Origin: a bacterium | Lineage (GTDB): Bacteria; Patescibacteriota; Microgenomatia; Daviesbacterales; UBA10151 | Reading direction: 5' to 3' | DNA: 64,000 nt | Assembly: GCA_021786105.1 (NCBI GenBank) | Contig: JAJYNW010000018.1 | Span: forward strand, 1-64,000 | Shown: one piece after another, positions 13,861 through 18,958 of the stretch | Position numbering within the stretch: position 1 is the first letter of the stretch | Layout of the letters: every line of letters starts with the position of its first letter | Translations under genes and position numbers: made by a program | The notes under the pieces: model-generated | Told to the model about the DNA's origin: nothing | Database searches by the model: none | Seen by the model: the letters and a program-made list of their open reading frames with translations, nothing else

Positions 13861-14373
13861 TTAATGCTTCAAAGCCTTTTCAACCATTTCGTCTATTAAA
13901 GGGCTTTTTATTTTTATATACACTTCCCTATTCTCATTTGCTTTTTCAGCAGCAATTTTCTTGATCTCTGAATATTTTTTCACTTCTTCAGGATGTGTCC
14001 GTAAATAACCTCTGAAAACAATTACATTATCCCACTCTTGGCTTTCTTTGAAAGTCAAATGCACATGGTATATCCTAAGTTTTTTATTCTCGTCTTTCAA
14101 TGATATTTTGTGGAATAATCGTTCAGCTGACCCACCTTTAGGACCAAATTCATAACCTATTTCTTGTATTTTTTTGGATACAGCCTTTAAGTTCTTTTTA
14201 TTGGTAGCAATACAAATGTCGATTATGCCTTTACCGCCTAAACCCGGTACTGATGTACTGCCAATATGCTCAATTAAATCATTCTCCCCTAAAATTTTTC
14301 TGATTCGGTTTTTTTCTAATTCAAAAAGCTTTGGGAAGGCTGGATCATAAGGCTTAAAAATATATTTTTTCAT
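13861..14373 (-). CDS. GrpB-family protein
   Basis: YDPAFP..FE.E, IEHIGSTSVPGL.GK.IIDI and FRGYLR.HP..Y..IK motifs. Confidence 0.9.
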   Translation of the reverse strand: MKKYIFKPYDPAFPKLFELEKNRIRKILGENDLIEHIGSTSVPGLGGKGIIDICIATNKKNLKAVSKKIQEIGYEFGPKGGSAERLFHKISLKDENKKLRIYHVHLTFKESQEWDNVIVFRGYLRTHPEEVKKYSEIKKIAAEKANENREVYIKIKSPLIDEMVEKALKH

Positions 14374-16163
14374 CAGCTTTTCAAGATGCTTAAAAATGCT
14401 TCTTGGGGGATTTCGACTCGGCCGATCATTTTCATTTTCTTTTTACCCTTTTTTTGTTTTTCCAATAATTTATCTTTTCTGGTTCTATCCCCACCGTAAA
14501 GCTTAGCAGTAACATCTTTTCTAAAAGGAGAGACTGTTTCCCTGGCAATAATTGTCCCTCCAATGGCGGCCTGGATAGCTATCACAAAATTTTGTCTGGG
14601 CAAAACTTCTTTTAATTTTTCCACCATATTCCTGCCAAACGAAGCAGCTTTCGGCCGAAAAACTATGGTAGAAAGCGCATCCACTTTTTCACCGGAAACC
14701 ATAATATCCACCCTGACTGCATCTGTTTCCCGAAAATCTATTAATTCCCAGTCAAGTGAAGCAAAACCTGAAGACACTGATTTTAATTTGTCATAAAAAT
14801 TAGCCACCATTTCCGAAAGCGGCATTTCATAAGTCATTTCCACTGCCACCCCAAAATGCTGCATATTTAAAAACTTACCCCGCTTTTCCTGTACTAATTC
14901 CATCACCGGACCAATATAAGTTTGCGGCACAAAAATCCGCAGCTTTACCCAAGGTTCTTTTAACCCCTTAATATTCTCTCCCTGAGGCAATTCGCTGGGC
15001 GAAGTAATCGGTTCCTCATTTAACAGATACTCCACCGAGGGAGCGGTAGCCAACAAATCCACATTAAACTCCCCGGACAATCTTTCCTGCACCACTTCTG
15101 CATGCAAAAGTCCCAAAAACCCGCACCGAAAACCCGCCCCTAAAGCATCGGAGTGCTCAGGGATATAGGAAAAAGCCGGGTCAGTCAATCTAAATTTTGC
15201 CAAAGCTTCTTTTAGTTCAAAATATTCATCAGCATCAATCGGGAAAAGCCCCACAAAAACCATTGGTTTAACCTCCTTGTAACCTGGCAATTGCTCGGCA
15301 TTAAAATCAGCAGCGATTGTATCACCTACCCGCACTAAATCCGGTTCTTTAATACCGGTAGCAATATAACCAATCTCCCCGGCTTTTAACCCTTCATTCG
15401 GCACCAGCTGTGGGGCAAAAAAGCCAGTTTCTAAGACATGACCAGCGGCCTGAGTTTGGAGAAAATAAATAGGAGTGTTAACTGGAGGAGTCTGCCCATC
15501 AATGATCCTTACCTCCGCCACCACCCCTTTAAACAGGTCATAAAAAGAATCAAAAATCAGCCCCCGAAACTTCCACCTCGGGGGTGGAATTGTAGCTGCA
15601 CCTCGGGATTTTGGGGCGGGAATACGCTCAACTATAGCCTTTAAAAGTTCTTCCACCCCCTCCCCGGTTTTGCCGGATACCAGCAATATTTCTTCCTCGG
15701 AAAAGCCAAAAGTATCAACCAGCTGTTTTTTAACCCCCTCAACATCCGCATTCGGCAGATCGATTTTGTTAATCACTGGAATCAAAGTCAGATTTTGTTC
15801 TAAAGCAGCCAGACCGTGGGCCAAAGTCTGGGCTTGAATTCCTTGGGTAGCATCCACCAGCAAAACCGCTCCTTCCACTGCGGCCAGCGCCCGGGAGACT
15901 TCATAGGAAAAATCCACATGGCCCGGAGTATCAATCAGGTTTAGAGTATATTCCACGCCTTGATGGTTATATTTCAACCTTACAGGAGCCAATTTAATAG
16001 TAATCCCCCGCTCCCGCTCCAAAGCCAAAGAATCCAGCAGTTGCGGCTGCAATTTATCTTTCAGCACGGTACCAGTTATTTCCATTAGCCTGTCTGCCAA
16101 AGTTGATTTCCCATGGTCTATGTGGGCCACTATAGTCAGATTACGAATATTAGATTGTTGCAT
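14373..16163 (-). CDS. lepA: Elongation factor 4 (LepA) with a non-canonical N-terminus
   Basis: AHIDHGKSTLADR, ERERGITIK, LIDTPGHVDF, GFRCGFLGLLH and KDVTAKLYGGD..RK.KLLEKQK motifs. Confidence 0.98.
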   Translation of the reverse strand: MQQSNIRNLTIVAHIDHGKSTLADRLMEITGTVLKDKLQPQLLDSLALERERGITIKLAPVRLKYNHQGVEYTLNLIDTPGHVDFSYEVSRALAAVEGAVLLVDATQGIQAQTLAHGLAALEQNLTLIPVINKIDLPNADVEGVKKQLVDTFGFSEEEILLVSGKTGEGVEELLKAIVERIPAPKSRGAATIPPPRWKFRGLIFDSFYDLFKGVVAEVRIIDGQTPPVNTPIYFLQTQAAGHVLETGFFAPQLVPNEGLKAGEIGYIATGIKEPDLVRVGDTIAADFNAEQLPGYKEVKPMVFVGLFPIDADEYFELKEALAKFRLTDPAFSYIPEHSDALGAGFRCGFLGLLHAEVVQERLSGEFNVDLLATAPSVEYLLNEEPITSPSELPQGENIKGLKEPWVKLRIFVPQTYIGPVMELVQEKRGKFLNMQHFGVAVEMTYEMPLSEMVANFYDKLKSVSSGFASLDWELIDFRETDAVRVDIMVSGEKVDALSTIVFRPKAASFGRNMVEKLKEVLPRQNFVIAIQAAIGGTIIARETVSPFRKDVTAKLYGGDRTRKDKLLEKQKKGKKKMKMIGRVEIPQEAFLSILKS

Positions 16164-16992
16164 ATTTTACACTCCCCTTCTCTATTCTGGCCTTAATGTT
16201 ATCTTCGCAAATAATCATACATTGCATTCTACCCTTATGTGTAATAAAAGGCTTTATTTTATTTATAAATTTAAGCAGTGAAATTGCTTGATTAACATTA
16301 ATTCTCCATAAATCCTTTTTGAATCTTGAACCATCCGCAGCTAATGCTCCTCTTTTAGAGATACATCTAGCTCGAGCTAAAATACCACAATTAGTCAATC
16401 TGCTTACCATCCAAGTAATAATATCTTTATCATAAGAATCAATTTTGAATCTTGCTCTCTTTTGGTTTAAGATAAAGTTCCCCTCTGCATCGGTATATCC
16501 TGCTATAAATGCCGCAATAAGCTGATCGTCAGCATCAATCCATTTAGGTACTTTTTTATGTTTAGGTATTAAAAAATCAAAAGATTTATTCAGATGACAA
16601 TTAACACTAACCCTATCTTTACCTTTAGATACAGTTACTTGACCATATTTAGAAAACATATTTTTCATCAAATTGATTTGAGCTTCTTGTGTTGTATTAC
16701 ACCTAGCCACTATTAAATCTGATAGCGCACTTGTTTGATACACATTTAAATCTCCTAACCTAAACCCAATCATATAAGCCTTTTCTGCTAAATTATCCGA
16801 AAAATCATACTTCCTGTATCTCATTCTTGCTTCAGAGGACGATCTTTTCGGTATACCATACTCCCGCATTCTCGTCCTAACAGTTACCGCATCACATTTA
16901 TAAAGTTTGCCTATTTTCAAAGGAGATAGATATTTTTTCCAATATAGCTGCTCAAGCTCCTCCGGAGGTATAAAGACTTTAGCTCTCGGCAT
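16150..16992 (-). mobile_element. Free-standing double-motif LAGLIDADG homing endonuclease with N-terminal HTH
   Basis: AYMIGFRLGDLN and AAFIAGYTDAEGNF helices; HTH-like LYWKKYLSPLKIGKLYKC..VTVRTRMREYGI; visibly AT-richer than lepA; overlaps lepA by 14 nt. Confidence 0.88.
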
Positions 16993-17020
16993 TAATTAAT
17001 TATATCTAATTAAACTCAAG

Positions 17021-17053
17021 TTATGCAATAATAGAAAAATTTCTTATGTTCAT
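17021..17053 (-). pseudogene. lepA: Displaced original 5' end of lepA (MNIRNFSIIA*)
   Basis: ATG AAC ATA AGA AAT TTT TCT ATT ATT GCA TAA encodes the canonical LepA start NIRNFSIIA, stopping exactly before HIDHGKST; TAAAAT 7 nt upstream. Confidence 0.88.
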
Positions 17054-17097
17054 GGAGCATATTTTAACAGGTTATCATCCTGAATTCAGCCAAAAGA

Positions 17098-17331
17098 CTA
17101 CCTAGTGAAAACAGAAGTTAACTGATAAGTTAATTTTATCTGAATAAGCAATAAGATAAAAATAATAACTAGAAGGAGTAACGCTAATTTCAACCAATGA
17201 AATCTCTTCTGCTTGATATCCATAATAGCTCCGAGCAATATGGCAACGAAACTAGCTGGTAATCCAAAAGAAGTAATATAATTTAAAATCCGGATGGTAA
17301 TAAAAAGATAATCCATAAATTTTCTAAACAC
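17098..17331 (-). CDS. Small membrane protein (2 TM)
   Basis: Hydrophobic 77-aa ORF overlapping the murJ stop. Confidence 0.55.
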   Translation of the reverse strand: MFRKFMDYLFITIRILNYITSFGLPASFVAILLGAIMDIKQKRFHWLKLALLLLVIIFILLLIQIKLTYQLTSVFTR

Positions 17332-18958
17332 TTTCCGGCAGGATCTCTTTGGATTTTAATTTCTCCTGGAACCTGCCCATTCTCTTTAAAAGCTCAATGT
17401 AAGTATCCAGCTCCCTAACCTGCAAAAACCTTACCAAAATTACATACACCGTTAAAGCAAACATGGAGGATAGCCCAGTCAGAGCCAGCAAGTTTACAGT
17501 TCTGGTAGTATCAAAGATCACCTGGTCCAAAAGTTTAATGGGAATATATAGGAAAACTCCCATAATTATTGCTGACATCAGCATTTTCAAGAAGGGAATA
17601 ATTGCTGCCTTTAGGTCAAATTTACCCACCCTTAAATGCAGCATCCAAAACAGCAGTATGGCCGAAATAATCGCGGCAATAGAATTAGCCAGGCCAATAC
17701 TCCAAACATCAAACTTTAAAATCATAATCAGATACAAGCTGAGGACAATATTTAATACCACCACAATCAAAGATACTATCACCGGCGTCTTGGTATCCTT
17801 AAGCGCATAAAAACCCCTGACAAAAAGCAGGGAAACCGCCTGGGCAGACAGTCCGATAGCCAGGTAGGCCAAGGTGGCACCGGTTAAAACGGTGGCCTGC
17901 CAGTTAAATTGGGAGGCACCAAAAACTAACCTGACCACCGGCACCCTGATCACAATCAAAATGGCAATGGCCGGCAGCGTCAGAAACAGAATTTGGTGCA
18001 TGGTGGTCAGGATGGTAACTTTAAATTCTTCCATCTTGCCCCGGGCTTTTTCCGACGATAAAACCGGCAAAGCTGCCTGGGCCAAAGTCGCCCCGAAAAG
18101 TCCAATTGGCACAACTTGCAGGTGTTGAGCAAAAGTTAAATATGTCACAGACCCCACAGATGCCAAAGTGGCTAAAGCCAGTCCTACTTTCTCATTGATT
18201 TGTTCAGCAGCCAACCCAATGGTCCTAACACTCATCAGCTGCATAATCTCTTTTACTCCGGGGTTGAAAAACTTCGGCGGGAATTTGAATCTAAAACCCA
18301 TGGACCGGACCAGCGGTAATTGTATTGCAGCATGTAAAAATGCCCCTATCACTACCCCATATGCCGCACCCATCACCCCAAAACTCTTAGAAAGGAAAAC
18401 AATCCCCACAATAATTCCCAAATTGTAAAATACCGGCGCCAGAGACGGGATAATAAACCTTTGAAAAGATTGCGAAATACCGATAAAAAAGGATCCAATC
18501 ACCAAAATCACCTGGCCAAAAAGAATTACTCTTGCCAGCTCTACGACCTGTGATTGTCTAACCGGGGTAAACCCGGGTGCTATAAAACTGGAAATAAGTG
18601 GCTGGGCAAAAATAAAAATTAAGACCGTAACTACAATAAAGATTGCCAAAGACACATTCAAAACTGCCCGCGCCATCTCAAAAGCATCCTCTTTGCCTTT
18701 ATTTTCCAAATGCTCTGTAAATACAGGGATGAAAGCCACAGACAAGGCGCCTAAAATGATTATTTGAAATATTAAATCCGGTAATGCAAATGCAGCCCAA
18801 AAAATATCGATTTTTTCCGGCAAGAACACATGAGCCAGCAACCGGTCTCTAACCAAACCTAACACCTTGGAAAGCATCATGGTGGCCATGATGATCGAAG
18901 CAGCTGACAATATCGATGTTTGTCTTGAATAAAGAAGGGAGAATAAATTCTTAACCAT
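17324..18958 (-). CDS. murJ: Lipid II flippase MurJ (MviN)
   Basis: SKVLGLVRD, AF.LPDL, GALSVAFIPVF and RGFYALKDTKTP motifs. Confidence 0.95.
   Translation of the reverse strand: MVKNLFSLLYSRQTSILSAASIIMATMMLSKVLGLVRDRLLAHVFLPEKIDIFWAAFALPDLIFQIIILGALSVAFIPVFTEHLENKGKEDAFEMARAVLNVSLAIFIVVTVLIFIFAQPLISSFIAPGFTPVRQSQVVELARVILFGQVILVIGSFFIGISQSFQRFIIPSLAPVFYNLGIIVGIVFLSKSFGVMGAAYGVVIGAFLHAAIQLPLVRSMGFRFKFPPKFFNPGVKEIMQLMSVRTIGLAAEQINEKVGLALATLASVGSVTYLTFAQHLQVVPIGLFGATLAQAALPVLSSEKARGKMEEFKVTILTTMHQILFLTLPAIAILIVIRVPVVRLVFGASQFNWQATVLTGATLAYLAIGLSAQAVSLLFVRGFYALKDTKTPVIVSLIVVVLNIVLSLYLIMILKFDVWSIGLANSIAAIISAILLFWMLHLRVGKFDLKAAIIPFLKMLMSAIIMGVFLYIPIKLLDQVIFDTTRTVNLLALTGLSSMFALTVYVILVRFLQVRELDTYIELLKRMGRFQEKLKSKEILPESV

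Follow-up and report, generated by a model that had tools for sequence, protein, structure and literature searches.

As a rule, free-standing homing endonuclease genes occur only in intergenic sites, and inside genes an intron or intein is needed to keep them harmless (PMC13619312, 2026). The closest described systems are the mORFs of fungal mitochondria, which make 'gene hybrids' in atp6 of Allomyces macrogynus, in atp6, atp9, cox2 and nad3 of Glomus sp., in atp9 of Rhizopus and in cox2 of Mortierella, bringing a foreign C-terminus and leaving the native one displaced (PMC3630166). C-terminal partial duplications flanked by homing endonuclease open reading frames (ORFs) are described for cob and atp6 of Endoconidiophora (PMC6279837), and LAGLIDADG genes are reported from ribosomal RNA insertions of bacteria of the candidate phyla radiation (CPR; PMC11270868). 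Here we describe an element at the 5' end of lepA in a bacterium of the Patescibacteriota (Microgenomatia; Daviesbacterales; UBA10151), found in a window of 64,000 nucleotides (nt), which is the whole stretch of DNA analysed (positions 1 to 64,000 of contig JAJYNW010000018.1, assembly GCA_021786105.1, forward strand). The element is an insertion of 899 base pairs (bp) at 17023-16125 on the minus strand of the window and separates the Ala codon from the His codon at the start of the P-loop motif AHIDHGKST of LepA. It is likely, and we hold this with good confidence, to be a mobile cassette whose LAGLIDADG endonuclease cuts intact lepA alleles, homes into them and supplies a recoded start that keeps lepA working.

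Anatomy of the lepA locus and its empty counterparts

Read along the minus strand, the locus consists of a short lepA stub closed by a stop codon, a spacer, an ORF of 280 amino acid (aa) residues encoding a double-motif LAGLIDADG protein, and a second lepA start that overlaps the end of this ORF (Table 1). The stub, the 280-aa ORF and lepA each lie in a different reading frame, and the endonuclease ORF takes up 843 of the 899 inserted bases. The whole lepA ORF (16163-14373, minus strand) encodes 596 aa starting with MQQSNIRNLTIVAHIDHGKST, and its product displays complete GTP_EFTU, EFG_C and LepA_C domains in Pfam. This anatomy is directly established, sequence reading and ORF listing having reproduced throughout the boxes, stub, spacer, ORF, second lepA start and coordinates proposed in an earlier sequence-only reading of the same DNA. 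Synteny with relatives holds on either side, with murJ upstream and the body of lepA downstream. The endonuclease gene is present in single copy in a genome of 1.04 Mb (26-contig draft), with no second copy found elsewhere in that genome.

LepA was searched for in 40 relatives and in the genome itself. The gene was present in 34 of these 41 genomes and 30 loci were returned, with the P-loop seen in an open frame in 27 of the 29 foreign loci (L020 and L026 were missed by the pattern used). The 5' end of lepA is contiguous in all 17 same-genus loci, and (M/V)NIRNFSIIAH[IV]DHGKST is read contiguously in 16 of them, so that the empty alleles predicted by the sequence-only reading for relatives without the endonuclease are directly observed. 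The counter-case named in that reading, endonuclease-free relatives with the same recoded start, was not encountered, as the MQQSN start occurs in none of the 17 same-genus lepA loci; nor was an endonuclease gene seen adjoining lepA in any relative. The sole same-genus lepA with a variant start, VNIRNFCIVSH (L017, genome G016), has no endonuclease beside it, and this start might be the scar of a lost cassette or plain variation.

The nine residues that follow Met in the stub are identical to the LepA start of 16 of the 17 same-genus loci, as expected if the stub equals the canonical LepA start. Over 27 nt, the stub shares a mean of 21.1 nt with the native 5' ends of these 16 loci, all differences being synonymous, compared with a mean of 17.5 nt for the functional copy, which carries F to L, S to T and I to V replacements at positions uniform in 16 of the 17 same-genus loci. 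Stub and functional copy share 16 of 27 nt and differ in 8 of 9 codons, values that were recomputed and agree with those given earlier. By residue identity and the higher nucleotide match, the stub is the native lepA start and not a chance match, and the functional start is the odd, foreign-looking one. The lepA body shows 82-88% protein identity to same-genus LepA and behaves as native; no unusually divergent stretch of lepA was found after the first 25 codons in a codon-aligned comparison with six close relatives (25-codon windows, low resolution). Three of the other LepA proteins (L019, genome G001; L024, genome G010; L031, genome G028) were observed to carry in-frame low-complexity insertions of about 25-45 residues, which are located in the G domain immediately ahead of the ...LNLIDTPGH strand and are not intein-like in appearance.

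The 280-aa protein contains two motifs, ...IGFRLGDLN (G80, D81) and ...IAGYTDAEGN (A169, E170, G171), of which G80-D81 and A169-E170-G171 are invariant in a 43-sequence alignment and are located in two LAGLIDADG-like helices. Pfam gave 22.3 bits for LAGLIDADG_3 (cut-off 22.5) and 16.3 bits for LAGLIDADG_1 (cut-off 23.1), and PF14528 is present in the precomputed annotation of many homologues. An alignment-profile search of PDB sequences retrieved 1dq3 (E 2.9e-6) and 4efj (E 4e-6). Structural modelling in AlphaFold2 (predicted local distance difference test score 92.4; predicted template modelling score 0.84), followed by Foldseek against the PDB, gave matches to PI-PfuI, E-DreI, I-DmoI, I-AniI, I-Tsp061I and I-SceI (E 6e-9 to 3e-7), with values of 5.7e-9 for 1dq3 and 2e-8 for I-DmoI. 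Normalised to the query, the template modelling scores reach 0.40-0.51, since the N-terminal helical region finds no counterpart, and the predicted model displays two alpha-beta-beta-alpha-beta-beta-alpha domains as in a DNA-binding saddle. Membership of the LAGLIDADG homing endonuclease family is settled by the profile and fold searches, the Pfam score falling just under the cut-off. The double LAGLIDADG motif proposed in the sequence-only reading is therefore retained on the strength of the invariant motifs and the fold. The helix-turn-helix (HTH) proposed with it is weakly supported: residues 10-44 form three short helices in the AlphaFold2 model, a single weak PDB profile match was obtained (E 0.11), and no HTH was matched in Pfam at E ≤ 0.1.

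Upstream of the stub, the TAAAAT box stands in a context, ...CTGTTAAAATATGCTCC-ATG, similar to the ...CTGCTA(A/C)AAT... located directly 5' of lepA in relatives. The window also has about 270 nt of extra DNA, containing a 77-aa ORF, between murJ and the stub, where most same-genus relatives have a murJ-lepA gap of about 25-30 nt. No credible homologue of the 77-aa ORF was found in the 40 relatives, the one match being at chance level (E 0.006).

Table 1 Features of the lepA locus in the window
Feature	Position	Strand	Basis
murJ-like ORF, 560 aa	19006-17324	-	ORF listing
Hydrophobic ORF, 77 aa, between murJ and the lepA stub	17331-17098	-	ORF listing
TAAAAT, -10-like box of the putative native lepA promoter region, 5' of the stub	17066-17061	-	sequence reading
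Displaced native lepA 5' stub, ATG AAC ATA AGA AAT TTT TCT ATT ATT GCA TAA (MNIRNFSIIA-stop), 11 codons including the stop	17053-17021	-	reading and comparison with relatives
Spacer, 28 nt, 5' end of the inserted element	17020-16993	-	sequence reading
TATAAT within the spacer, ending 6 nt before the endonuclease ATG (16992)	17004-16999	-	sequence reading
Free-standing double-motif LAGLIDADG homing endonuclease gene, 280 aa, with N-terminal helical HTH-like region	16992-16150	-	alignment, profile, AlphaFold2, Foldseek
Shine-Dalgarno-like AAGGGGAG lying within the endonuclease ORF, 8 nt 5' of the new lepA ATG; putative function	16172-16179	-	sequence reading
Element-borne recoded lepA 5' end, MQQSNIRNLTIVA; first 14 nt overlap the last codons and stop of the endonuclease	16125-16163	-	reading and comparison
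Native lepA body, His codon of HIDHGKST to stop	14373-16124	-	ORF listing, Pfam, relatives

Recurrence at lepA and parallel clades at other gene ends

In a collection with one genome per prokaryotic species, 101 relatives were found and 80 loci were kept; a protein search gave at least 550 homologues at E ≤ 1e-5, and a metagenome scan provided 69 loci. The record titles of several assemblies are unreliable as taxonomic labels. In 15 of the 80 genome-collection loci, an overlap of 1-68 nt joins the endonuclease stop to a lepA start and the N-terminus of LepA is extended and non-canonical. Apart from L042, which lacks a called start and appears alike by eye, these 15 comprise every genome-collection match of at least 43% identity, and the lepA start overlaps the endonuclease ORF in all 16 lepA-type loci of the genome set. 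The same arrangement is shared by 14 of the 69 metagenome loci (L116-L129), which are all the matches of at least 43.7% identity with a readable 3' flank. This clade of endonucleases is exclusively associated with this position in lepA. An uninterrupted ORF from the start codon is present in 78 of the 80 genome-collection homologues, the exceptions being L042, without a start, and L111, with 17 stops.

The displaced native codons can be followed as a relic in these loci. A 17-nt stretch covering the F-C-I-I-A-H codons was sought within 120 nt upstream of the endonuclease start in the 27 lepA-type loci with enough upstream sequence. At up to 3 mismatches, the relic was detected in 22 of the 27 loci, compared with 1 of 905 control windows of the same loci, and at up to 4 mismatches in 25 of 27, compared with 5 of 905. 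It ends 19-31 nt before the endonuclease start in 26 of the 27 loci and differs from the functional copy at 5-10 of the 17 nt in all 27. Complete stubs that still have a start codon persist in the window, L037, L039 (= L119, L120), L041 and L118. A gap of exactly 6 nt separates a -10-like hexamer from the endonuclease ATG downstream in 21 of 28 lepA-type loci (a raw count, without a shuffled control); this position suggests a leaderless or near-leaderless endonuclease mRNA. The idea that the relic itself (TTGCAC/TTGCAT) serves as the -35 box of an endonuclease promoter was dropped, the spacing from relic to TATAAT being about 7-18 nt among loci and the consensus scan remaining silent. In L043, L047 and L049, a tyrosine-recombinase-like ORF (end ...HSLRHSFATHLLENG...RTTQIYT...) was seen by eye to stop immediately before the lepA relic.

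The check proposed in the sequence-only reading, that homologues should be found repeatedly between a relic and a recoded start, in lepA or in other conserved genes, was borne out more widely than expected, with equivalents at metG, yebC, uvrA and groEL. Targets were classified for 82 rows (79 of the 80 loci, the window and two same-genus loci identical to L104 and L103), with neighbour classes assigned by regular expressions and terminus reading, and Pfam scans covering only 20 representatives. On this basis, 36 rows belong to the 5' end of metG, 16 to the 5' end of lepA, 10 to the 3' end of groEL, 9 to the 3' end of uvrA and 4 to the 5' end of yebC; five are single cases (ileS, an rsmI-like methylase, arsA, leuD and an M20 peptidase), and the target is unclear in two. 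Endonuclease genes of the 5'-end type run in the same direction as the host gene, whose start they usually overlap or adjoin. Those of the 3'-end type converge on the host gene, with overlapping stops. Whichever the type, the relic lies on the 5' side of the endonuclease and the functional replacement terminus on its 3' side. These sister clades are thus directly seen to parallel the lepA clade.

Flanking peptides were screened for similarity against a null of 150 mismatched pairs (95th percentile 40.6; 99th percentile 57.7). Duplicated UvrA C-termini of 25-56 residues scored 60-160 in 7 loci, duplicated N-termini of methionyl-tRNA synthetase (MetRS) 41-69 in 7 metG loci, and LepA stubs 44-50 in 3 loci. 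The window scored 33, below the 95th percentile, because its duplicate has just 9 residues, and the nucleotide relic count was therefore used for lepA-type loci. Minus-strand flank matches in two metG loci (L098, L100) look like low-complexity noise. At the nucleotide level, terminal duplicates show identities of 0.49-0.79, without a single identical pair.

A maximum-likelihood tree of 81 endonucleases recovered all 16 lepA rows as one clade with a Shimodaira-Hasegawa-like approximate likelihood-ratio support of 100, and one clade each for groEL (98), uvrA (97) and yebC (95). The target labels require 11 changes on this tree, the minimum being 10 and the mean after shuffling 42.4. Within the genus, strong endonuclease matches were found in 2 of 18 relatives, at other targets, so that three genomes hold three family members: at lepA in the window's own genome (G000), at metG in G017 and at groEL in G003. 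Across the class, a family member is present in 13 of 401 genomes. This patchy distribution is the pattern of a mobile element.

Further details were observed at individual members of the sister clades. In G003 (L033 = L103, 1380-2580), groEL ends in a replacement tail, ...EKSPPTPPMPPGGGMDY, which is followed by a convergent endonuclease of 333 aa, and the displaced groEL tail, ...KTPQMSAGGMGGY closed by a stop, lies beyond it. At L097 (2842-5262, plus strand), a single ORF of 806 aa joins a family endonuclease in frame to full MetRS with no intervening stop. The metG-type elements show a well-conserved TTGAC(T/A)-17/18-TA(T/A)AAT promoter-like sequence just before the endonuclease start, as seen at L032 (1447-1482), L148-L152, L154, L156, L158, L163, L167, L169 and L171.

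Proposed mechanism and rival explanations

Combined with the comparison of relatives and the recurrence in other genomes, the locus can be interpreted as a cassette of three parts: a short leader on the 5' side that contains a -10-like box, a free-standing gene for a monomeric double-LAGLIDADG endonuclease and, fused to the 3' end of this gene, lepA codons 1-10 in diverged form with three codons added, which would bring their own ATG together with a Shine-Dalgarno-like site buried in the endonuclease ORF. The enzyme is proposed to cut intact lepA at the conserved ...TTT TGT/TCT ATT ATT GCA CA(Y) ATT GAT CAT GG... site. The break would be repaired from a cassette-bearing allele, with the native 5' codons as left arm and the lepA body as right arm, so that the cassette would be copied in and the recipient's own first ten codons stranded as a dead stub. 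lepA would survive such an event because the cassette provides a new in-phase start. The filled allele would resist re-cutting because both junctions break the site, by the relic and leader on the left and by the recoded codons followed by HIDHG on the right. lepA would then be transcribed through the endonuclease gene and translated from the start overlapping the endonuclease stop. More speculatively, the relic is perhaps kept as the only upstream homology between unrelated genomes, and the overlapping stop and start perhaps make lepA expression depend on an open endonuclease frame, in agreement with the uninterrupted ORFs of nearly all homologues.

Several observations weigh against this mobile cassette. 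The relic was counted in the very loci that had supplied its consensus, and several of the metagenome loci are duplicates of genome loci (L119 = L120 and close to L039; L126 near L045; L129 near L056). Certain cassette-bearing alleles retain canonical residues, such as NFSIIAH in L121, and any immunity must consequently act at the nucleotide level. No co-conversion tract was detected beyond the recoded codons, in a test of low resolution that is weak because the relatives share only about 75% of nucleotides. A consensus promoter scan listed no sigma-70-like site before the endonuclease, the -35 region matching at 3 of 6 positions only. Endonuclease and LepA-body identities co-vary with r = 0.86 over 66 pairs from 12 cassette-bearing loci with full-length LepA, and the endonuclease is the more similar of the two in just 15 of the 66 pairs, which fits long vertical persistence, or transfer mainly between kin, better than frequent long-range homing.

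The same correlation would be expected of a fixed remnant, that is, a cassette that homed once, is now inherited vertically with no homing today, and is kept because it contains the promoter read-through, ribosome-binding site and start codon of lepA; the lepA start within the endonuclease ORF in every lepA-type locus of the genome set would penalise deletions and perhaps nonsense mutations. We nevertheless consider a fixed remnant unlikely. Only G000 has the cassette at lepA among the 18 genomes of the genus (G000 included) whose lepA 5' end was examined, the catalytic residues D81 and E170 are intact, as are the ORFs of almost all homologues, and the stub is still an intact ORF of nearly native sequence, which suggests a recent arrival. 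A landing of the endonuclease in intergenic space upstream of lepA, with the stub as an unrelated local duplication and the true target elsewhere, is very improbable. The relic ends at the same Ala-His codon and at much the same distance from the endonuclease start in nearly all loci, the promoter-to-ATG spacer of relatives is directly followed by a contiguous gene, and the duplicate has diverged in every locus, unlike a slippage duplication.

Splicing that joins the stub to HIDHG, by a group I or group II intron or an intein, deserves even less credence. By eye alone, the ...ATT of the stub and the ...GTG before GCC CAC can be read as U and omega-G splice boundaries. However, no intron family of Rfam was matched on either strand of 15500-17600 at E ≤ 10, the only matches being chance-level ones to small nucleolar and small RNAs, so that an intron was rejected for lack of a covariance-model core, and the endonuclease ORF fills nearly the whole insertion. 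In 29 other loci, moreover, a LepA-like N-terminus is conserved, in phase and equipped with a start of its own, which would be pointless within an intron, and the sister clades of the 3'-end type lie convergent to their host genes. An intein is excluded because the stub, endonuclease and lepA occupy three frames with a TAA stop after the stub, and no Hint or intein domain of Pfam was matched at E ≤ 0.1. Rfam, Pfam and frame reading thus concur with the earlier statement that no intron core or intein motifs are visible. An assembly chimera in this metagenome-assembled genome might be invoked because the genome is a draft in 26 contigs, but we give it almost no weight, since the identical architecture is present in 29 other independently assembled loci and both flanks are syntenic with relatives.

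Taking the mobile cassette as the preferred explanation at lepA, a broader and tentative proposal, to which we give somewhat less than even credence, is that natural 'home-and-rescue' drives form a large family, this cassette among them, in ultra-small bacteria and archaea (CPR, DPANN and some Chloroflexi), with portable cassettes and clades specialised on gene-end motifs. Their 5'-end targets may be the LepA P-loop, the HIGH region of MetRS and the N-terminus of YebC, and their 3'-end targets the tails of UvrA and GroEL. Each cassette may consist of a leaderless-type promoter, an endonuclease and a recoded terminus, with the relic doubling as a short upstream homology arm, which would render the cassette portable between genomes with different neighbours. 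Likewise, the overlap of host start and endonuclease stop would tie host expression to an intact ORF, and almost all copies would consequently remain uninterrupted.

The window and about 150 related loci indicate that elements in prokaryotic chromosomes replace gene ends as a systematic strategy, beyond a handful of fungal mitochondrial elements, and that this strategy also works at 5' ends, where the element must add a translation start. If the family is confirmed, it would offer dozens of natural LAGLIDADG enzymes whose targets can be read from relic and gene body, and would account for odd N- and C-termini and small 'orphan' ORFs beside lepA, metG, yebC, uvrA and groEL in candidate-phyla bacteria and DPANN archaea. 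It would also constitute a natural counterpart of engineered recoded-rescue gene drives and warn annotators that such LepA and MetRS starts are element-borne.

Comparison with known systems

No report of a homing endonuclease in lepA, or of terminus-replacing free-standing ones in bacteria or archaea, was found in a literature search that left out subscription journals and supplements, so that a precedent may exist; the same search yielded no prokaryotic or 5'-end precedent for terminus replacement. The 'third strategy' that the sequence-only reading attributed to this element, besides introns and inteins, is upheld as an insertion free of both in a bacterial gene. It is not wholly new, as fungal mORFs with a foreign C-terminus, which that reading itself mentioned, are known.

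The fungal mORFs and the window element have in common an endonuclease ORF inside a coding gene without intron or intein, a diverged in-phase terminal copy and a displaced native segment that is closer to relatives. The fungal elements are mitochondrial, act at the 3' end and often have the endonuclease in phase with the gene, whereas the window element resides at the 5' end of a gene on a bacterial chromosome and, owing to that position, must also supply a start codon, a ribosome-binding site and transcription. The window element does not replace the C-terminus of a mitochondrial gene; its uvrA and groEL relatives do replace 3' ends. Its family, unlike the mORFs, is large, diversified and prokaryotic, with target-specific clades, and the 3'-end members at uvrA and groEL converge on their host genes.

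Free-standing homing endonucleases of phages, such as the T4 seg and mob enzymes and F-CphI, carry out intronless homing with co-conversion of flanks, and their genes sit between genes and cut the neighbouring gene. The window element resembles them in its free-standing gene, in a carrier immunity that would rest on target sequence differences and in its presumed spread by double-strand-break repair. In contrast to the phage genes, it is inserted inside a coding sequence and carries a replacement terminus. With the LAGLIDADG enzymes of introns and inteins (PI-PfuI, I-DmoI, I-AniI, I-SceI), it shares fold, motifs, conserved target sites and a host range overlapping in CPR bacteria and archaea; unlike them, it has no splicing element and would be harmless through gene-end replacement. 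Engineered 'recoded rescue' homing drives cut an essential gene and carry a cleavage-resistant recoded copy of it. The combination of a nuclease, a recoded and presumably resistant replacement, and homology-directed copying would be common to these drives and the window element, which differs from them in being natural, protein-guided and prokaryotic and in replacing only a 13-codon terminus.

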